Source: Geotalea uraniireducens Rf4 (GTDB taxonomy: Bacteria > Desulfobacterota > Desulfuromonadia > Geobacterales > Geobacteraceae). From it: a stretch of 32,000 bases of DNA. How positions within the stretch are numbered: the first letter of the stretch is position 1; each line of letters starts with the position of its first letter. The stretch is from NCBI RefSeq assembly GCF_000016745.1, contig NC_009483.1, positions 4,140,001 through 4,172,000 on the forward strand. Direction: 5' to 3'. The notes below the pieces were generated by a model that was not told the origin of the DNA, did not search any database, and worked only from the letters and a program-made list of their open reading frames with translations. Positions 12,290-30,722 of this stretch are shown here, piece by piece. Position numbers and translations under genes: made by a program.

Positions 12290-12318
12290 TGCAGCGGAAA
12301 CGGTTCTGACGGAGGGTG

Positions 12319-12417
12319 TTCTCCTTTTCAAAAGGAAGGCGCAGCCGTTTCCGGCAGCACCCGTTGGCCGCGCACCGTGAGAGGGTTGCCCTGGTGGGTA
12401 CGGCGGCTCGGAGAGCC
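12319..12417 (-). promoter_or_regulatory. Moco/Tuco-type riboswitch aptamer (copy 1)
   Basis: The minus-strand RNA reads GGCUCUCCGAGCC...GGCCAACGGGUGCUGCCGGAAACGGCUGCGCCUUCCUUUUGAAAAGGAGAAC. It shares the blocks CUCCGAGC, GGCC-A-GGGU, a GAAA-tetraloop hairpin and GCCUYCC...AAAGGAGAA with copies 2 and 3. These copies sit upstream of classic Moco-regulon genes. Confidence 0.8.
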
Positions 12418-12449
12418 GACAATTTATTCAGTTACAGATCCTGGGTCTT

Positions 12450-14400: not shown

Positions 14401-14421
14401 CAGCCATAAGGAGTGGTCTGC

Positions 14422-16404
14422 ATGCATAAATTCCCCACTATCAGCAAGATCAAGATAAATCAGGCTCGCGCCGATTTTATCAGCCGCGGGACGCTCCCCA
14501 CCGGCCTCGTCTCGGACTCCATAATGCGTTCCTGGCGACGTTCGATCGACAATGGTGTGGACATGGAGCGGGAAAACAGCAACATTCCGACCATCACCAG
14601 CAAGGAACTGGAAGGTCTCACGGAAAAGAATCGCAACCTCCTCGTCCAGTCCTTCCCCGTCATGGAGAACCTCTACGAGCAGATCCAGGACACTTCGAGC
14701 ATGGTGATCCTGGCAGATGCGACAGGGGTCGTGCTCCACTCCCTGGGGGATACGGATTTCGTGGACCGGGCCCGCAAAGTGTCCTTGCAGCCCGGCGGCA
14801 TCTGGTCCGAGCAGTTTCGCGGCACGAATGCCATCGGCACTGCCATTGTGGAGCAACTGCCGGTCCTTGTGCACAGTTCGGAACACTACGTAACGTCCAA
14901 CGATTTTCTAACCTGCTCGGCCGCCCCGATCTTCGACCCGTACGGCAAGCTCCTCGGCGTCCTCGACGTTTCCGGCGACTGCCGCGCCTACCAGCAGCAT
15001 ACGATGGCCCTCGTGAGGATTTCCGTTCAGCAGATCGAAAACCAGATGTTTTCCATCGGCTTCGATTCGGACATCATCCTTCAGTTCCATAGCCGCCCCG
15101 AATTCATCGGCACCATGTACGAAGCCATTGCGGTATTCGGACGTGATGGCCGTTTGCTGGCAGCGAACCGGAGCGCCCTCCTGCACCTGGGATTGGACCG
15201 TTACCGGGCCCAGACCGTAACGTTCACCCACCTGTTCGACCTGTCTCTCGACTCGCTGCTGGCCCATGCCGGGGCTACCCCCCAGCCGGTCCTGCAGCTG
15301 CCCCTCTACGGCGGGATGAAGGTATTCGGCCGGGCAAGGGTTTCGCCGGCACGATCTGCCAAGGTAATCAGTCACAAAGGATCGCCGGGAGCATCCACAC
15401 CGGCACGAAAACCGGGCCTGAGCGAAAGACGGCTTCTCGCCCTGGATGCCCTGGAGTTCGGCGATACCAGGATGCGGAGCGCCATCGACAAGGCGCGGAG
15501 GGTAGCGGGACACGATATACCGGTGCTGATTGAAGGGGAATCGGGAACCGGCAAAGAGCTTTTCGCCAGGGCGATGCATCTGAGCGGCGGGCGGCGCAAT
15601 GCGCCGTTCGTGGCGCTCAACTGCGCGGCGATACCGGAAAATTTGATCGAATCGGAGTTGTTCGGCTATCAGGAAGGGGCGTTCACCGGGGCAAAGCGGA
15701 ACGGGAGTATGGGCAAAATCCGGCAGGCGGACGGGGGAACTCTGTTTTTGGACGAAATCGGCGACATGCCGTTGGCGCTGCAAGCGAGGTTACTTCGGGT
15801 GCTCCAGGAACGCACCGTTACCCCGCTGGGAGGCGCCGGTTCCCACCCCATCGACATCTCGGTGGTCTGTGCAACCAACCGGAAGCTTCGGGACGAAATC
15901 GCTGCAGGGCGTTTCCGGGAAGATCTTTACTACCGCCTCAATGGACTGCTCATCACCCTGCCGACCCTGCGGGAGCGCGAAGACCTGCGTCCCCTGGCAC
16001 AGTCCATTCTGAATGAGATTACAGGATTGGGGCGGGTGATAAGGTTGAGGGACGACGTGCTCGACATTTTCGCGTCTCACCCCTGGCCGGGCAATGTCCG
16101 CCAGATGCATAACGTGCTCCGCACTGCGGTCGCCCTCCTCGGAGAAGACGACGAGATCAGCGTGGTCCACCTCTCCGACGACTTTCTGGAACAGTACCGG
16201 GAAGCCGCCCCCCTTCACATTGAGAGTAAAAACTACCTCCCGGCCACGACGGTGCAGGCCGGCACGGCAAGCCTGGACCATCTGGAGGCCCAGGCAATCC
16301 GCCAGGCGGTCAGGGAATGCAACGGCAACATATCTGCCGCTGCACGACGGCTCGGGATAAGCAGGAACACCCTCTACCGGAAAATGCGTTCCATCGGCCT
16401 GTGA
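14422..16404 (+). CDS. sigma-54-dependent transcriptional activator, AcoR-like (N-terminal sensor + AAA+ + Fis HTH)
   Basis: It carries GESGTGKE (Walker A), the GAFTGA loop (EGAFTGA), LFLDEIGDM, and the C-terminal HTH NISAAARRLGISRNTLYRKM. The ATG at 14422 lies 8 nt after an AAGGAG. The ORF track starts at a GTG at 14413. Confidence 0.92.
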   Translation: MHKFPTISKIKINQARADFISRGTLPTGLVSDSIMRSWRRSIDNGVDMERENSNIPTITSKELEGLTEKNRNLLVQSFPVMENLYEQIQDTSSMVILADATGVVLHSLGDTDFVDRARKVSLQPGGIWSEQFRGTNAIGTAIVEQLPVLVHSSEHYVTSNDFLTCSAAPIFDPYGKLLGVLDVSGDCRAYQQHTMALVRISVQQIENQMFSIGFDSDIILQFHSRPEFIGTMYEAIAVFGRDGRLLAANRSALLHLGLDRYRAQTVTFTHLFDLSLDSLLAHAGATPQPVLQLPLYGGMKVFGRARVSPARSAKVISHKGSPGASTPARKPGLSERRLLALDALEFGDTRMRSAIDKARRVAGHDIPVLIEGESGTGKELFARAMHLSGGRRNAPFVALNCAAIPENLIESELFGYQEGAFTGAKRNGSMGKIRQADGGTLFLDEIGDMPLALQARLLRVLQERTVTPLGGAGSHPIDISVVCATNRKLRDEIAAGRFREDLYYRLNGLLITLPTLREREDLRPLAQSILNEITGLGRVIRLRDDVLDIFASHPWPGNVRQMHNVLRTAVALLGEDDEISVVHLSDDFLEQYREAAPLHIESKNYLPATTVQAGTASLDHLEAQAIRQAVRECNGNISAAARRLGISRNTLYRKMRSIGL

Positions 16405-16515
16405 TGCCTTGCCGGATTTTCCTGGCAGTCACATTCAAGCAAGATCCTCATTTTTACCTGCTGCAGCCAACCTGACAGAGCGTACCGGCATCGAATAGCC
16501 TGAGATATTCGGGAT

Positions 16516-17004
16516 TCACGGCGTGCCGCACTCAGCCTGGTCCCCCTGGATCTTGGCCACCGCATGGGGGACCGCCGGCCAGACGGCCTCCAGGTTCTCT
16601 ATCGCCCCTTTCGGACTTCCCGGCAGGTTGATGATGAGCGTCTGCCCCCTGATGCCGGCCACCGCCCGGGAGATCATGGCATTTGGGGTCTTCAGGAGGC
16701 TCTTTGCCCGCATCACCTCGCCGAAGCCGGGGATGAGACGGTCGAGCACCTCCACGGTCGCATCGGGGGTCACATCCCGGGGTGACACACCGGTGCCGCC
16801 GCAGGTGAGTATGAGATCGAAGGTGTTGCTGTCGGCCCATTCCCGCAGCCGCTCGATGATCATCGCACCCTCGTCGGGGATCACCTCGCAACGGTTGGTC
16901 GTCACCCCCTGCTGGCTGAGCCATTTCTCCAACGCCGGACCGCTGGCATCGGCCCGCTCACCGCGGGCGCCACGGTCGCTCAAAATCAATAATGCAGCCT
17001 TCAT
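16516..17004 (-). CDS. moaB: MoaB/MogA-family molybdopterin adenylyltransferase
   Basis: Start trimmed to the ATG at 17004 (MKAALLILSDRGARGERADASG). Motifs TCGGTGVSPRD and INLPGSPKG are present. Confidence 0.85.
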   Translation of the reverse strand: MKAALLILSDRGARGERADASGPALEKWLSQQGVTTNRCEVIPDEGAMIIERLREWADSNTFDLILTCGGTGVSPRDVTPDATVEVLDRLIPGFGEVMRAKSLLKTPNAMISRAVAGIRGQTLIINLPGSPKGAIENLEAVWPAVPHAVAKIQGDQAECGTP

Positions 17005-17082
17005 GATTGAATCCTTTGTAGGAGCAACCCCGTGTGGTTGCCCGATTTGGTTGCCCGGTGTGGGCGGCACATGGGGCCGCCC

Positions 17083-17565
17083 CTACCGTTCTTCCTCCCG
17101 CCGGTAGACGCCGCTCTTGCCGCCTTCCTTGTAGAGGAGCGCCACCTGGCCGATGGTTATTCCCTTGTCGCTACCCTTGCACATATCGTAGACAGTGAGT
17201 GCTGCCACCGAGGCCGATACCATCGCCTCCATCTCCACTCCGGTCCGCTCGAAGGCCCGCACCGTCGCGGTCACGGCAATTTCGCCCGTTTCCGGATCGG
17301 TGGCGAATTCGACCGCCGCATGGTGGATGGCGAGCGGGTGGGAAAGGGGGATCAACTCCGGTGTTTTCTTCGCGGCGGCGATGCCGGCAAGCCGGGCAAC
17401 GCCGAGGACGTCCCCCTTGGTCATCCTTCCATCGAGGATGGCCTGCAAAGTCTCCGGCCGGAGGCGGACCACGGCCTGCGCCCTGGCGGTGCGCAGCGTC
17501 GGCTCCTTGCCGCTGACATCGACCATGATCGCCTGCCCCTGTTCGTCAAAGTGGTTGAATGACAT
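17083..17565 (-). CDS. moaC: cyclic pyranopterin monophosphate synthase MoaC
   Basis: 160 aa. Motifs MVDVSGK, LIPLSHPL, GVEMEAM and ALTVYDMCK are present. Confidence 0.95.
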   Translation of the reverse strand: MSFNHFDEQGQAIMVDVSGKEPTLRTARAQAVVRLRPETLQAILDGRMTKGDVLGVARLAGIAAAKKTPELIPLSHPLAIHHAAVEFATDPETGEIAVTATVRAFERTGVEMEAMVSASVAALTVYDMCKGSDKGITIGQVALLYKEGGKSGVYRREEER

Positions 17566-17586
17566 GTGTGGTGCTCCTTTGTCGCA

Positions 17587-17677
17587 GTTCTATGTTCTAT
17601 GTTCTATGTTCTATGTTCTATGTTCTATGTTCTATGTTTTTTAAACCTCGAACATAGAACCTAGAACGTAGAACAGC
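17587..17677. repeat. heptad-phased tandem/inverted repeat array (7 x GTTCTAT, then inverse-complement units)
   Basis: Seven perfect tandem GTTCTAT copies span 17587-17635. They are followed in the same 7-nt register by GTTTTTT AAACCTC GAACATA GAACCTA GAACGTA GAACAGC. The array lies in the intergenic gap between the moeA stop (17680) and the moaC SD (17571-17580). Confidence 0.9.
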
Positions 17678-17679
17678 CT

Positions 17680-18897
17680 TCATCCTTCCAGCATATCCAC
17701 GTCGCCGCGCAGCAGATGCACATCCACCTCTTCGCCGGCGGCAACCGCGGTCCTGTCCTTCGGCAACACTGCGATAGCGTTGGCCCTGACCATGGTCTTC
17801 AGGATGCCCGTGTTCTGGTCCCCGGAAATGGAAGCCCAATACCGGCCGTTTTCCACTTCGATCCTGACCCGCAGGAAATGCACCTTGCCCGGCTTCTTTC
17901 GCGCATCTTCGCGGAGGGTCGCCTTCACGTACGGCTTGATCACCCGCTTGTGCCCCATCATCCTGAGAAGCGCCGGCTTGGCGAATTCCTCGAAGGTGAC
18001 CATGGTGGAAACAGGGTTGCCCGGAAGGGAAAAGACCGGTTTCCCATCTTTCACCCCGAAGGCGGTGGGGCCTCCCGGCTTCATGTCCACCTTCCAGAAC
18101 AGCTGCCCGACCCCCAGCTCGGCAAGGCAGTCGCGCACCAGGTCCCGGTCTCCAGCCGAAACCCCGGCGGAGGTGATCAGAGCATCCGCCTTAAGCCCCT
18201 CGATCATCTTTTCCAGATGGCTTTCCCGGTTGTCACGGGCAATGCCGAGTATGATCGGTTCCGCGCCGATCTCCCGGATGGCCGCGGCCAGAGAAAGCGC
18301 ATTGCTGTTGATGATCCTGCCGTCCGCGGGCGGCTCCCCCAACTCGATCAGTTCGTCACCAGTGGAGAGGACCGCCACCCGCGCCCGGCGAAAGACCGGT
18401 ACGACCGCCTTGCCGAAGGAGGCCAGCATGCTGATTTCCGGCGGATGAATGACCGTGCCTGCCGTAATGATCGTCTCGCCACGGCAAACGTCCATCCCCC
18501 GGAAGCGGATGTGCTGACGCGGGGTCACTTTCTCCTTCAAGAAAACAGCGCCGTCGCGCTCCTCCGTTTCCTCTACTGGGACCACCGCGTCGCAGTCAGC
18601 GGGAATGGGGGCGCCGGTCATGATCCTGACGGCGCTGCCGGGCTCGATCGCCGGAGTTACGGCCCCGCCAGCGGGGATGTAGCCGGTGACTTTCAGGGTA
18701 CAATTCCCTTCCAGGCAGTCGGAAGTCCGCACCGCAAAGCCGTCCATAGCCGAATTGTCATAGAACGGCATGTCCCAGGGCGCCGTTACATCTTCCGCAA
18801 TGACCCGGCCGAGGGCCGACAGTAGATCGACCCGCTCAACGCCTAGGGGGGCAACGCTGTTGATGATAATGCTGCGCGCATCTTCAAAGCTGGGCAT
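17680..18897 (-). CDS. moeA: molybdopterin molybdo/tungsto-transferase MoeA
   Basis: 405 aa. Motifs NSAMDGFAV, RIMTGAP, STGDEL, ITSAGVSAGD and LPGNPVS are present. Confidence 0.93.
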   Translation of the reverse strand: MPSFEDARSIIINSVAPLGVERVDLLSALGRVIAEDVTAPWDMPFYDNSAMDGFAVRTSDCLEGNCTLKVTGYIPAGGAVTPAIEPGSAVRIMTGAPIPADCDAVVPVEETEERDGAVFLKEKVTPRQHIRFRGMDVCRGETIITAGTVIHPPEISMLASFGKAVVPVFRRARVAVLSTGDELIELGEPPADGRIINSNALSLAAAIREIGAEPIILGIARDNRESHLEKMIEGLKADALITSAGVSAGDRDLVRDCLAELGVGQLFWKVDMKPGGPTAFGVKDGKPVFSLPGNPVSTMVTFEEFAKPALLRMMGHKRVIKPYVKATLREDARKKPGKVHFLRVRIEVENGRYWASISGDQNTGILKTMVRANAIAVLPKDRTAVAAGEEVDVHLLRGDVDMLEG

Positions 18898-18944
18898 GAA
18901 GAATCTTCTCCTTTATTTCAAACGAAACTGTTCTGCCATGCACA

Positions 18945-20042
18945 TCATTTCCCGGCACGGATCAGATGAACGGCAGTGGCCTTGAACGAGACAAAAACCC
19001 GCTTCCCCTCGTCAAGGTGCAGATTGCCGAGGGATTGATTAGTCAGGTACGCAACCAGGGAAAAACCGCAGTCCAGGTGAATCTTTTGGAATACCCCGGT
19101 CGGAATGATTTTTCTGATGGTTGCGGGAAAGACGTTCCTGGCGCTGGTCTCGCCGGCCGGGTCAAAAATATCGATGGTCACGTGCTCGGGCCGGATGCAG
19201 AAGACGGCTGTCTCGCCCGCGGCAGCAGTGCCGGGGAACTCGATGCGGCGCTCTGCCAGGGCCACGGTGACCAGGCCGGCGGCGGTTGCAAGTACCGTCC
19301 CGGTCAGGACGTTCTCCATGCCGACGAAAGAGGCCACGAACTCGTCCACCGGCTGGTTCATCACCTCGACCGGCGTGCCGCTCTGGACGATCTCCCCCTG
19401 ATTCATGACCACCATCCGGTCCGACAGCCGCAGAGCCTCCAACTGGTCGTGGGTCGCCAGCACCGCCGCTGTGCCGGTCTCCGTCAGTATCCGGTCCAGA
19501 TCGTCCATAAGCGCCTGGCGTGTGGGTGGGTCGAGGGCGACGAACGGCTCATCGAGAAAGATCATCTCCGGCCGAATGGCAAAGGCCCGCGCCAGGCTGG
19601 TCCGCTGGGCTTCGCCACCGGAAAGCTTGCGGGCCGAGCGTTCTGCCAGGTTGACCATGTTGAACAGCTCCATGGTCGCCATGACCCGGCTCCTGACCTC
19701 CTGCCTGCTCAGCCCGCGAATCTTCAACCCGGCAGCCACGTTATCAAAGACCGTGGCATCGAACAGGAGCGGCTGTTGAAAGACCATGGCCAGCCGCCGG
19801 CGATAGGCAAAGGTCGCCCGATCGGAAACGATTGGCTCCCCCTGGCAGCGCAAGGTCCCCGTAGCGGCAGGAATCAGGCGGGCCAGGGCCAGCAGCAGGG
19901 TCGACTTGCCGGCGCCATTGGGGCCGATGAGTGACAGTACCTCGTTTTCATGCAGTGTGAAAGAGGGAATGGCGAGCACCCGCACCCCGCCACGACAGAC
20001 CTCCAGATCCTGTACGTCGAGAAAGCTTGCAGCAGCGCTCAT
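18945..20042 (-). CDS. tupC: ABC transporter ATP-binding protein with C-terminal TOBE/Mop-like domain (tungstate/molybdate type)
   Basis: It carries GPNGAGKST, LSGGEAQR and IFLDEP, plus a C-terminal beta-rich domain. It overlaps the permease gene by 4 nt. Confidence 0.8.
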   Translation of the reverse strand: MSAAASFLDVQDLEVCRGGVRVLAIPSFTLHENEVLSLIGPNGAGKSTLLLALARLIPAATGTLRCQGEPIVSDRATFAYRRRLAMVFQQPLLFDATVFDNVAAGLKIRGLSRQEVRSRVMATMELFNMVNLAERSARKLSGGEAQRTSLARAFAIRPEMIFLDEPFVALDPPTRQALMDDLDRILTETGTAAVLATHDQLEALRLSDRMVVMNQGEIVQSGTPVEVMNQPVDEFVASFVGMENVLTGTVLATAAGLVTVALAERRIEFPGTAAAGETAVFCIRPEHVTIDIFDPAGETSARNVFPATIRKIIPTGVFQKIHLDCGFSLVAYLTNQSLGNLHLDEGKRVFVSFKATAVHLIRAGK

Positions 20043-22182: not shown

Positions 22183-22204
22183 TGAACGTTTTGCAACGCT
22201 GCGG

Positions 22205-22303
22205 TTTCTCCTTTCCAAAAGGGAGGCGCTGCCGTTTCCGGCAGAACCCATAGGCCGTGCGCCATCAGGTACAAACCTTTTAGGCGCTACAGCTCGGAGA
22301 GCG
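22205..22303 (-). promoter_or_regulatory. Moco/Tuco-type riboswitch aptamer (copy 2)
   Basis: The minus-strand RNA reads GCUCUCCGAGCUGUAGCGCC...GGCGCACGGCCUAUGGGUUCUGCCGGAAACGGCAGCGCCUCCCUUUUGGAAAGGAGAAA. It lies upstream of moaE-tupABC-moeA-moaC-moaB. Confidence 0.85.
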
Positions 22304-22347
22304 TCAGTTTCCCGTCCGGGTTCAGCGGATGGATACTGACATGTGGG

Positions 22348-26379: not shown

Positions 26380-26428
26380 ACGTTTACTCCTTTCCCTTTT
26401 TTGAATGTTGTGGCTTCAAGCCACGTTA

Positions 26429-26525
26429 ATTCTCCTTTCCAAAGGGAGGCGTCGCAGTTTCCCGCGAAACCCGTTGGCCTCTTTCCTTGGGGGGATGCCC
26501 TGTAGGTGAGGAGGCTCGGAGAAAA
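26429..26525 (-). promoter_or_regulatory. Moco/Tuco-type riboswitch aptamer (copy 3)
   Basis: The minus-strand RNA reads UUCUCCGAGCCUCCUCACCUACAGGGCAUCCCCCCAAGGAAAGAGGCCAACGGGUUUCGCGGGAAACUGCGACGCCUCCCUUUGGAAAGGAGAAU. The GAAA hairpin covaries with copy 2 (UCGCGG/CUGCGA versus CUGCCG/CGGCAG). It lies upstream of AOR. Confidence 0.8.
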
Positions 26526-26535
26526 ACAGGTGTGG

Positions 26536-29466: not shown

Positions 29467-30357
29467 TCACGCCTTCTCCACCAAAAGCCCCTCTTCACCA
29501 AGTATCCGCCAGAGCCCTTCTGCCGTATCATCGGTCGAAAGAGCATGCTGTTTTCCCTCACGGGCCTTGATCCCGCCGGAGAGGAGCGAGAGGATACGCT
29601 CGAAAGCGGGAAGTTTTGCATCCGGAGTCACCACCCGCACCGGGTCGGGACGCGGGACACCGAACTCGGCTGTCGTGAGATATGCGCCCGTGGCGCCGAT
29701 CTCCCAGAAGGGGAGCCCCAGGTCCGCCAGTCCCCACGTTTCAACGTTTGCGGTCAGCGCCTCGGTAACAGCCTCGACGGAAGGATAGCGGGGCGACCGG
29801 CTTTCCTCGAAGAGAATCGTAGATGGGAACGGTACGGTGACCACCTGCCTGCCACCCCGATCCCCTTTGCGCAGCACTTCAACCCATTCGGTTTTCAGGG
29901 TGAGAGAGACGGCGGCGGCAATGCTTGGCATGCCGTTCACGGCAGCGGCCAGGGCCGGCACCGGATCGTTACCCCGGTCAGCCAGGCGGTTACCGGTGAA
30001 GACGAGGGTTGGCGCAAGAATGGTCATGATCCGGGAGAGGACCCTGGCATCAGCCACGGCGTCCCCCCCCTCCAGGCCATGATCCCAGAACCGTATCCCC
30101 CGGTCAGCCCCCATGGAGAAGGCAAGCCGCAAGGTGTCGTCAAGACGGGCGGGACCGACTGCAAGAACGGTCACCGTGGCGCCGACTCTGTCTTTAAGGC
30201 AGAGCGCCTCTTCCAGGGCCGCAAGATCGGCCGGGTTCGGTACGCGCCTTAAGCCCCGGTCGCTGATGCCAGCGCCCCGCGTGATGACGCGGGCCGGGGG
30301 GCGAGGATCACTGCTCTCCCGAAGGAGGACGAGTATGTTGAGTTTTTTCTGTGGCAT
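29467..30357 (-). CDS. electron transfer flavoprotein beta-subunit-like (EtfB/FixA-like) protein
   Basis: 296 aa. It carries NILVLL...NPADLAALEEALCLKD...VTVLAVGP...LRLAFSMGADRGI...LVFTGNRLADRGNDPVPALAAAVNGMP. No EtfA-like gene is adjacent within the window. Confidence 0.75.
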   Translation of the reverse strand: MPQKKLNILVLLRESSDPRPPARVITRGAGISDRGLRRVPNPADLAALEEALCLKDRVGATVTVLAVGPARLDDTLRLAFSMGADRGIRFWDHGLEGGDAVADARVLSRIMTILAPTLVFTGNRLADRGNDPVPALAAAVNGMPSIAAAVSLTLKTEWVEVLRKGDRGGRQVVTVPFPSTILFEESRSPRYPSVEAVTEALTANVETWGLADLGLPFWEIGATGAYLTTAEFGVPRPDPVRVVTPDAKLPAFERILSLLSGGIKAREGKQHALSTDDTAEGLWRILGEEGLLVEKA

Positions 30358-30374: not shown

Positions 30375-30440
30375 AATTTTGAATTATGAATGTTGAATTT
30401 TGAATTAAATTCAAAATTAAGAGTTCAAAATTCAAAATTG
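30375..30440. repeat. AT-rich heptad-phased inverted-repeat array (AATTTTG-type units)
   Basis: In a single 7-nt register it reads AATTTTG AATTATG AATGTTG AATTTTG AATTAAA TTCAAAA TTAAGAG TTCAAAA TTCAAAA. The central dyad AATTTTGAATT-A-AATTCAAAATT is a perfect 11 bp. It fills the gap between the fixX stop (30444) and the SD of the EtfB-like gene (30365-30369). Confidence 0.85.
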
Positions 30441-30443
30441 CCT

Positions 30444-30722
30444 TTACGTCATTCGGTACGCGACGCCGAATCCTCCCCGCGGGTAGCGCCAGCGGGTGAA
30501 GGCGTTCTTGTGGCAGACCACATAGCAGGTGCCGCATTCCAGGCAGCCGTCATGGACGAAGGTCATTATTTGCTCCTCCTCCGACCAGGTGTAGCAACGG
30601 GCGGGACAGGAGTTGGTGCAGCCGCGATTGTCGCAGCCGACGCAGACCGCAGTATCGAGAACGATATGGGGTTCCCGGTCGATGGTGAAACTGGTGAAGT
30701 CGAATATTTCGTCTATGTTCAC
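30444..30722 (-). CDS. fixX: FixX-type ferredoxin-like protein
   Basis: 92 aa. The Cys pattern is CVGCDNRGCTNSCPARC...CLECGTC. It overlaps fixC by 4 nt. Confidence 0.9.
   Translation of the reverse strand: MNIDEIFDFTSFTIDREPHIVLDTAVCVGCDNRGCTNSCPARCYTWSEEEQIMTFVHDGCLECGTCYVVCHKNAFTRWRYPRGGFGVAYRMT

Follow-up and report, generated by a model that had tools for sequence, protein, structure and literature searches.

What is an unbroken run of heptanucleotides doing between two genes for molybdenum cofactor biosynthesis? The question is raised by the moeA-moaC junction of Geotalea uraniireducens Rf4, within a stretch of 32,000 nt (NC_009483.1, positions 4,140,001 to 4,172,000; hereafter the window, with positions counted from its first nucleotide), where an earlier note on this DNA had described a heptad array with inverse-complement units. 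The element is a heptanucleotide simple sequence repeat (SSR) with an inverse arm, beyond chance expectation; it extends from the stop codon of one gene to the Shine-Dalgarno (SD) sequence of the next within a long operon, it can form a stem of about 23 bp in several registers, period-7 elements recur at the same junction in relatives, and it is of a multicopy kind. Sequence comparisons suggest that this kind is a dispersed intergenic one, resembling repetitive extragenic palindromes (REPs), in Geobacteraceae and many other environmental bacteria. The explanation that we favour, as plausible without being probable, is that the element is a slippage-prone, REP-like heptanucleotide SSR palindrome that acts as an adjustable intercistronic RNA stem-loop.

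Read on the plus strand, the element (17587-17677) parses into 13 x 7 = 91 nt in one register, and both the sequence read and Tandem Repeats Finder bear out the thirteen heptads in unbroken register, seven of them perfect GTTCTAT copies, that the earlier note had reported (Table 1). The program returned a period-7 array at 17587-17638 (7.4 copies, 100% matches, score 104, unit GTTCTAT) and a second period-7 array in the same element at 17644-17674. These 91 nt had been taken for the whole gap between moeA and moaC, which is in fact 114 nt long: 2 nt separate the moeA stop codon from the degenerate arm, and 7 nt separate the perfect arm from the moaC SD. On the mRNA, the degenerate arm reads GCUGUUC UACGUUC UAGGUUC UAUGUUC; the inverted-repeat arms are 32-34 nt long and 85-88% complementary. 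The G+C content of the element is 33% compared with 57.7% for the window, consistent with the earlier description of an AT-rich element in GC-rich DNA. In a high-stringency period-7 autocorrelation of the whole window, this site alone stands out, and the 21-mer (GTTCTAT)3, with up to 3 mismatches allowed, has 8 matches in the window, all within the element, and 0 matches in 100 dinucleotide-preserving shuffles. With head-to-tail 7-nt units far beyond chance and a non-coding location, the element is a long SSR. A mini open reading frame (ORF; AUG UUC GAG GUU UAA, 17636-17656, minus strand) covers the last heptad of the 5' arm and the loop, with a weak AGG 4 nt upstream, and is probably due to chance.

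Table 1. Coordinates of the heptad elements and associated features in the window.
Feature	Position	Strand	Remarks
Perfect SSR arm, seven identical heptads	17587-17635	-	GTTCTAT on plus strand, AUAGAAC on mRNA; hairpin 3' arm, moaC side
Two hinge heptads, GTTTTTT AAACCTC (plus strand)	17636-17649	-	loop and inner stem region of hairpin
Degenerate inverted arm, GAACATA GAACCTA GAACGTA GAACAGC (plus strand)	17650-17677	-	hairpin 5' arm
moeA, upstream cistron	17680-18897	-	stop TGA at 17680-17682; Pfam MoeA_N, MoCF_biosynth, MoeA_C
moaC, downstream cistron	17083-17565	-	Pfam MoaC
MoaB/Mog-like gene after moaC	16516-17070	-	Pfam MoCF_biosynth
moaC Shine-Dalgarno, AAGGAG	17574-17579	-	7 nt past last heptad (mRNA sense)
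Moco riboswitch	22192-22310	-	RF01055, 62.4 bits; heads the gene string moaE-modA-modB-modC-moeA-(heptads)-moaC-moaB
Second period-7 dyad, AATTTTG-type units and inverse	30375-30440	-	between FixX-like ferredoxin and ETF genes
4Fe-4S ferredoxin gene, FixX-like	30444-30722	-	92 aa; downstream of FixC-type gene
Electron transfer flavoprotein (ETF)-domain gene	29467-30357	-	

The heptad array between moeA and moaC is not an assembly artefact of the window, because independent assemblies show identical flanks and arms up to the point at which they break. The arms and flanks were seen again in independent assemblies of three runs (SRR9436596, SRR9436595, SRR29904084). Look-ups with MoaC and MoeA gave Logan contigs only, and those of this species all end exactly 30 nt into the perfect tract, from one side or the other (at position 1 in L001 and L002; in the last 30 nt of L003, L004 and L005). 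An assembly with k=31 is expected to break there when the period-7 tract is at least 38 nt long, and every short-read assembly therefore divides the moeA-moaC operon; from the contig break points, the tract length is at least about 38 nt in each run.

The mRNA strand of the element is predicted to fold with -42.2 kcal/mol, compared with -24.0 +/- 3.2 kcal/mol for shuffled sequences (z = -5.6). The minimum-energy structure has a very low frequency in the ensemble and the centroid is almost unpaired, because equivalent registers compete: the 5' arm (GUUCUAC GUUCUAG GUUCUAU GUUC) can pair with the 3' array in any of four registers, all of 23 bp, with energies of -29.7, -29.4, -29.1 and -28.5 kcal/mol, and a fifth register falls to -20.1 kcal/mol. 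The 23-bp stem holds two regularly spaced mismatches. Thus, the slip-register hairpin proposed by the earlier note is recovered in silico, although its proposal that the degenerate units could pair with any of the seven perfect units is not, given that only four registers are good. Across these four registers, the distance from the end of the stem to the SD is 29, 22, 15 or 8 nt, and the moaC SD is unpaired to the repeat arms in all of them. With the SD left free by every register, the fold does not point to simple occlusion of the SD. The idea of an intercistronic RNA structure is in keeping with the in silico fold and with the Haemophilus precedent described below, but not in the form of simple SD occlusion.

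We infer from the operon context that the element is transcribed: modC, modB, modA and moaE lie upstream of moeA, also on the minus strand. No sigma-70-type promoter was predicted in 16400-19000, and a scan for intrinsic terminators found none at the element. An intrinsic terminator was also rejected on inspection, the stem being A+U-rich and followed by UGCGACAAAGGAG, with no combination of a G+C-rich stem and a U tract. An Rfam search at gathering thresholds returned nothing at this element or at the second heptad element of the window, its only matches being the three Moco (molybdenum/tungsten cofactor) riboswitches elsewhere in the window. A known RNA family was rejected as a candidate, a permissive Rfam search having given just sub-threshold matches to generic miRNA-precursor hairpins, on both strands.

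Under the explanation that we favour, the element would be transcribed within the polycistronic mRNA and would exert its effect through the long stem-loop, which could be cleaved as a double-stranded substrate by RNase III or could hold up 3' exonucleases. The stem would separate the fate of the riboswitch-controlled mod-moeA segment from that of moaC-moaB, and the element would replace the tight stop-to-SD coupling of those relatives that have no array at the junction. The perfect seven-copy arm would be a recent slippage expansion of a four-unit arm. Copy number would set both the number of registers and the distance between stem and SD, so that repeats gained or lost could tune expression.

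The only experimentally dissected heptamer case is the (ATCTTTC)n tract in the 5' untranslated region (5'-UTR) of hmw1A and hmw2A in Haemophilus influenzae, where a long hairpin, with ten repeats as its left arm, is cleaved by RNase III (Rapun-Araiz et al., 2025; PMC12721329). Expression of hmw falls as repeats rise, and transcription, the hairpin and RNase III are all needed for change in repeat number (PMC12721329). The element of the window resembles it, in silico, as a heptanucleotide SSR that serves as one arm of a long hairpin with a non-identical complement, just upstream of a coding sequence; in both, repeat copies beyond those needed for the stem can 'tune', and short-read assemblies break at the tract. 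The hmw tract differs in that it lies in a 5'-UTR with its own promoter, ahead of a contingency gene for host interaction, and has a G-rich right arm and 11-63 copies; RNase III cleavage, copy variation and the effect on expression are demonstrated there, whereas for the window element they are putative.

Relatives were collected by a MoeA scan with one genome per species, which placed the window in Geobacteraceae, the top match being a Geobacter sp. metagenome-assembled genome (MAG) with 94% identity. Among 17 Geobacteraceae moeA-moaC gaps, five (those of the window, L006, L016, L019 and L020) are spacers of 100-120 nt in which the strongest periodicity is 7, and four of these five fold with z from -3.2 to -6.4, L016 having a direct array only. 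The arrays start 2-6 nt past the stop codon and end 1-14 nt short of the SD. They consist of unrelated units: GTTCTAT in the window, CCTCGNN in L006, GTGAANN/NNTTCAC in L019, CTGTANN in L020 and GTTTTTA (x12) in L016. In relatives that have no array, either 12-19 nt take in the stop codon, SD and ATG, or the spacer is short and unrelated. Judging from these sequences, the evolutionary pattern at the junction is not clock-like. In the window and L006, moeA is 91% identical at the nucleotide level and the arrays are completely different; L019 and L021 share a 5' arm after the stop codon (GTGAAGA GTGAATG GTGAAAG GTGAAAG) that is 30/32 identical, on par with the best-conserved coding windows of moeA, though moeA is just 71-73% identical (nt) and the upstream spacer is unalignable. 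This arm identity (L019 11219-11322; L021 4592-4700) holds despite a disrupted 3' arm in L021, where moaC is also preceded by another gene.

Heptads also occur elsewhere in one of these operons: in the Geobacteraceae MAG L016, the modA-modB gap (647-862) is filled by about 30 heptads (GGACCAG x9, then GTC[A/T]CAG x22). The two blocks can pair on the mRNA with G-U wobbles, and folding favours the sense strand over the antisense strand by 26.8 kcal/mol. In L007 (3689-3830) and L008 (11216-11355), the moeA-moaC gap is taken up by a conserved element of another kind, about 125-140 nt in length (TTTTCCGCAATCTCTGC...GCTTGTGCGRCGTAC...CCGCCTCCGCGCAA), and elements of this type are also present downstream of moeA in L025 and L031. 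The L007/L008 element showed no period-7 signal and no excess folding, and is probably one more of the dispersed repeats of Geobacteraceae.

A metagenome scan for GTTCTANGTTCTANGTTCTANGTTC identified at least 120 stretches, in contigs of 21-74% G+C; the window locus is not among the matches listed, and it is to these listed matches that the counts given here refer. The arrays abut stop codons or SD-start pairs, and some lie between a stop codon and a terminator (L076). By strict word criteria, 22 of the 128 GTTCTAN arrays are accompanied, within 150 nt, by three or more inverse GAAC units at period 7, whereas two control words gave 0 matches, and the GAAC word gave 0 at period 6 and one at period 8; the inverted dyads are non-random. 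The shorter arm of a dyad comprises 3-5 units, so that the stems span roughly two helical turns or more. The phases between arms are scattered (0:5, 5:4, 6:2, 4:2, 1:1, 3:1) and the gaps range over 9-79 nt, so that the unbroken register across the hinge, which the earlier note had described, holds for the window element but is not a general property of such dyads.

GTTCTAN arrays appear to constitute a multicopy family rather than a set of independent accidents, because 8 of 120 contigs carry at least two separate elements and several contigs of one metagenome share a unit. A recurrent four-unit arm varies just at the seventh base (GTTCTAC GTTCTAT GTTCTAG GTTCTAC GTT); the degenerate arm of the window fits this form, and for this reason the perfect seven-copy tract looks like a recent expansion of such an arm. 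Based on crude ORF calls, the arrays are almost all intergenic, between genes that are co-directional in 40 cases, convergent in 9 and divergent in 3, which is the spread expected of transcribed extragenic palindromes. The strand of the array relative to transcription (14 sense, 26 antisense) shows no significant bias, and no strongly conserved GTTC core was seen beyond the matched arrays, the flanking units of which decay to background at every position. Across 743 kb of GTTCTAN-bearing contigs, the other tandem arrays number 106 at period 7, compared with 36, 18 and 19 at periods 6, 8 and 9, and their units are very diverse.

Individual contigs illustrate the range of such arrays. In L088 (2452-2555), (GTTCTAC)7 is directly followed by (TTCAAAA)4, the unit of the second element of the window, side by side in one intergenic region. 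In L128 (1900-10100), 10 kb contain six copies of a segment of about 200 nt, with 3 to 4.5 GAACGYA heptads in each, and these paralogous copies differ in heptad number. L091 and L127 (G+C 0.21), contigs that are 95-97% identical, hold more than 10 arrays of different 7-nt units, with up to 18 copies, in 12 kb.

The second element of the window, for which the same architecture with a different sequence had been claimed, was confirmed as a dyad: Tandem Repeats Finder gave period-7 arrays at 30375-30406 and 30407-30439, with 32-nt arms that are 84% complementary. It has a G+C content of 17%, folds with z = -3.0 and is intercistronic, like the element between moeA and moaC. It is identical in the one other sample in which it was found, an independent run. 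A tblastn search with FixC, FixX and ETF against the collected loci, aimed at the same junction in relatives, gave no match.

Several results weigh against a role of the moeA-moaC element as an RNA stem-loop. The SD is free in every register, so that an effect on translation is not obvious, and the variable positions of the arms are mismatched, not compensated. About 83% of the GTTCTAN arrays listed have no detectable inverted arm. Most relatives have no element of any kind at the moeA-moaC junction, and the element is therefore dispensable. Selection on the RNA strand was assessed by comparison of sense and antisense minimum free energies across 45 intergenic regions, on the premise that selected mRNA pairing, with its G-U pairs, should favour the sense strand; the mean difference was 0.0 kcal/mol (26 vs 19; Wilcoxon p = 0.97), and the antisense fold was slightly better for both window elements. 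With folds symmetric between strands, there is thus no mark of selection for pairing on the mRNA strand specifically. The comparison neither favours nor disfavours an RNA role: stems of Watson-Crick pairs only, DNA-level roles and neutrality are all compatible with it.

The analyses that DISCRIMINATE between mechanisms were those of strand-fold symmetry, arm phase and gap, core motif and strand bias, together with the promoter, terminator and Rfam searches. The leading rival to an RNA stem-loop, a serious contender that we nonetheless consider unlikely, is that the element is a neutral by-product: a lineage-wide 7-nt slippage bias would make the arrays, template switching at hairpins would make the inverse arm, and the result would merely be tolerated. 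The dominance of period 7 among arrays of many unrelated units (106 vs 36, 18 and 19) would follow from such a bias, and heptanucleotides are reported, for most prokaryotic genomes, as the most abundant class of long SSRs with units of 5-11 nt, with slippage of the polymerase as the explanation (Mrazek et al., 2007, via PMC4679880; PMC4692102). Neutrality also agrees with the symmetry of sense and antisense folds, with the absence of the element from most relatives and with the recent expansion to which seven perfect copies point. It accounts less readily for the recurrence of one unit at several separate loci within a contig and within a metagenome, for recurrent four-unit arms that differ at the seventh base alone, or for inverse arms so strongly enriched over control words. 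Nor would it predict that the arm of L019 and L021 stays 30/32 identical despite a moeA identity of 71-73% and another spacer that is unalignable, or that the junction is occupied in 5 of 17 species when the flanking DNA, approximately 430 kb, has a single further strong heptad array. The conserved L019/L021 arm would also fit an array that is read at the DNA level, with one protein (or dimer) per heptad on the duplex, omega/ParB-like or IHF/HU, serving as operator, roadblock or nucleoid organiser. In the omega system of pSM19035, parS sites and operators likewise consist of contiguous 7-bp units in mixed direct and inverse orientation, of which four or more are needed (PMC9499535); all 13 units of the window element share one register, units have a conserved core of 4-5 nt with variable ends, and binding of IHF/HU as global regulators was proposed for comparable sites of Geobacter metallireducens by Aklujkar et al. 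(PMC2700814). We nevertheless judge such an array improbable, and among the roles that the earlier note had put forward it was a protein array with 7-nt periodicity that fared worst. The units differ between the two window elements and at the same site in relatives, so that many cognate proteins would be needed, and the varying phase and gap (9-79 nt) between arms make a single lattice across both arms unlikely. The omega sites belong to plasmid promoters and centromeres, with one consensus, a gene for the cognate ribbon-helix-helix protein and no tolerance of gaps (PMC9499535), whereas the window element is intercistronic and apparently chromosomal, with no sigma-70-type promoter predicted; its two hinge heptads depart from the consensus, and in the omega system such an interruption abolishes function (PMC9499535). 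Moreover, flanking units have no strongly conserved core, and divergent promoter regions are the rarest context (3/52 of the matches listed).

A mobile origin is a further alternative, in which the element would be a miniature one, similar to miniature inverted-repeat transposable elements (MITEs) or REPs, spread by a transposase or a REP-associated tyrosine transposase (RAYT) into a permissive gap, with any effect on expression incidental. Unrelated elements at the same site in close relatives (the window and L006, with a moeA identity of 91%), a near-identical arm at the same site in the distant pair L019/L021, and other repeat elements filling the same gap in L007 and L008 are all what insertion might produce, as are the multicopy family and an A+T-rich element in a G+C-rich genome; in Geobacter metallireducens, insertion sequence (IS) elements lie at fixed distances from related class-1 sites (PMC2700814). 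We give this alternative little credence: neither a target-site duplication nor fixed termini can be seen, the variation in arm length, gap and unit is continuous, slippage alone accounts for the perfect tract, and no transposase gene is linked to the element at this locus (no search aimed at RAYT genes was made). Least probable, in our estimation, is an array read as single-stranded RNA, with one OB-fold (oligonucleotide/oligosaccharide-binding) protein, of the cold-shock or S1 domain type, per heptad, which would melt or compete with the hairpin and thereby sense the level of chaperone. Bacillus subtilis CspB binds heptamer repeats, one per heptamer, with a preference for T-rich sequence, and such binding has been proposed for TAACTGA repeats upstream of start codons (PMC4679880); such binding would account for a period of 7 nt irrespective of unit sequence, and the perfect arm does end 7 nt before the SD. 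This case is purely analogical, however, and the arrays show no significant strand bias (14 sense vs 26 antisense) and have diverse units, some of them G+C-rich (GGACCAG, CCTCGNN). These explanations are not mutually exclusive, and an origin by mobility or slippage can coexist with the RNA-level effect that we favour.

The element has counterparts among described repeats; the earlier note missed its membership of a described class, that of the paired heptanucleotide arrays of G. metallireducens and of heptanucleotide long SSRs in general. REPs, and the bacterial interspersed mosaic elements (BIMEs) that they compose, are imperfect palindromes in transcribed intercistronic or 3' regions; they are multicopy, rare in divergent promoter regions and variable between close relatives. 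Their stem-loops act as mRNA stabilisers or translation modulators. REPs have units of 20-40 nt with no internal 7-nt periodicity and are tied to RAYT transposases. The heptad elements resemble the REPs and BIMEs of enterobacteria and pseudomonads as multicopy, extragenic imperfect palindromes that avoid divergent promoter regions, and differ from REPs in their internal 7-nt period.

Within the Geobacteraceae, the class 3 'global regulator binding sites' of G. metallireducens (Gmet_I301-I308) comprise eight pairs of arrays on opposite strands, each array with five heptanucleotides (MTYCTGA) in tandem (Aklujkar et al., 2009; PMC2700814). Nearly all lie past the 3' end of one gene and ahead of the 5' end of the next, among them those at moaA-1/mosC-1, cbiG/cobQ and proB/proA, and the binding of IHF/HU was a guess on the part of the authors (PMC2700814). 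The likeness to the window element is close: paired inverse heptad arrays of about 80-100 bp, between co-directional genes that include Moco genes. The unit differs, being MTYCTGA there and GTTCTAN here, and in the window one arm has expanded to seven perfect copies. A regular-expression search for three MTYCTGA units found none in the window or the collected loci. The 32-kb window contains one GTTCTAN element, and the class 3 sites amount to 8 pairs in the G. metallireducens genome. Heptanucleotide long SSRs in general are also intergenic tandem 7-nt units, often ending a few nucleotides before a start codon or SD (PMC4679880), and their excess of period 7 is reproduced here. Among these, TAACTGA direct repeats lie just upstream of start codons in Beggiatoaceae and Cyanobacteria (and Bacteroidetes), with cold-shock proteins (Csp), S1 or CsrA as proposed readers; they comprise one heptamer in direct orientation, with a strong forward-strand bias and one inverted case among 170 sets (PMC4679880), whereas the window element is defined by its inverse arm and hairpin. 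Thus, the architecture and context are already annotated in G. metallireducens, and the element is related to a mechanism demonstrated in Haemophilus; what is new here is the comparison of the junction among relatives, with unrelated units and one conserved arm, the breadth of GTTCTAN dyads in metagenomes, and the quantified degeneracy of registers.

Three Moco riboswitches lie within the 32 kb of the window, all on the minus strand and at 57-63 bits against a gathering score of 36: the one that heads the operon (Table 1) and two more at 12305-12425 and 26417-26533. A gene for a sigma-54-dependent activator (MimR_N, GAF, AAA+, HTH_8; 14413-16404, plus strand) is convergent to the end of the moaCB genes.

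A broader proposal, which we regard as doubtful, is that heptad dyads are a widespread, selected class of intercistronic rheostats in housekeeping operons of environmental bacteria, in which architecture (the 7-nt period, arms of about four units and the stop-SD position) would be kept while sequence turns over. The period might then derive from a factor that reads one heptad at a time, either an OB-fold/cold-shock RNA chaperone or a repeat-binding protein yet to be recognised, or else RNase III processing and transcription might drive repeat change, as claimed for hmw. If such a class exists, the near-identity of the L019/L021 arm would represent real purifying selection. From a practical viewpoint, tracts of this kind break short-read assemblies exactly at operon junctions. 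The moeA-moaC locus offers a clean natural series, namely a core biosynthetic operon with relatives that have different dyads, or none, at the same junction, in a family with genetically tractable members; this series could separate RNA processing or stability elements tuned by repeats from protein arrays and from tolerated mutational debris.

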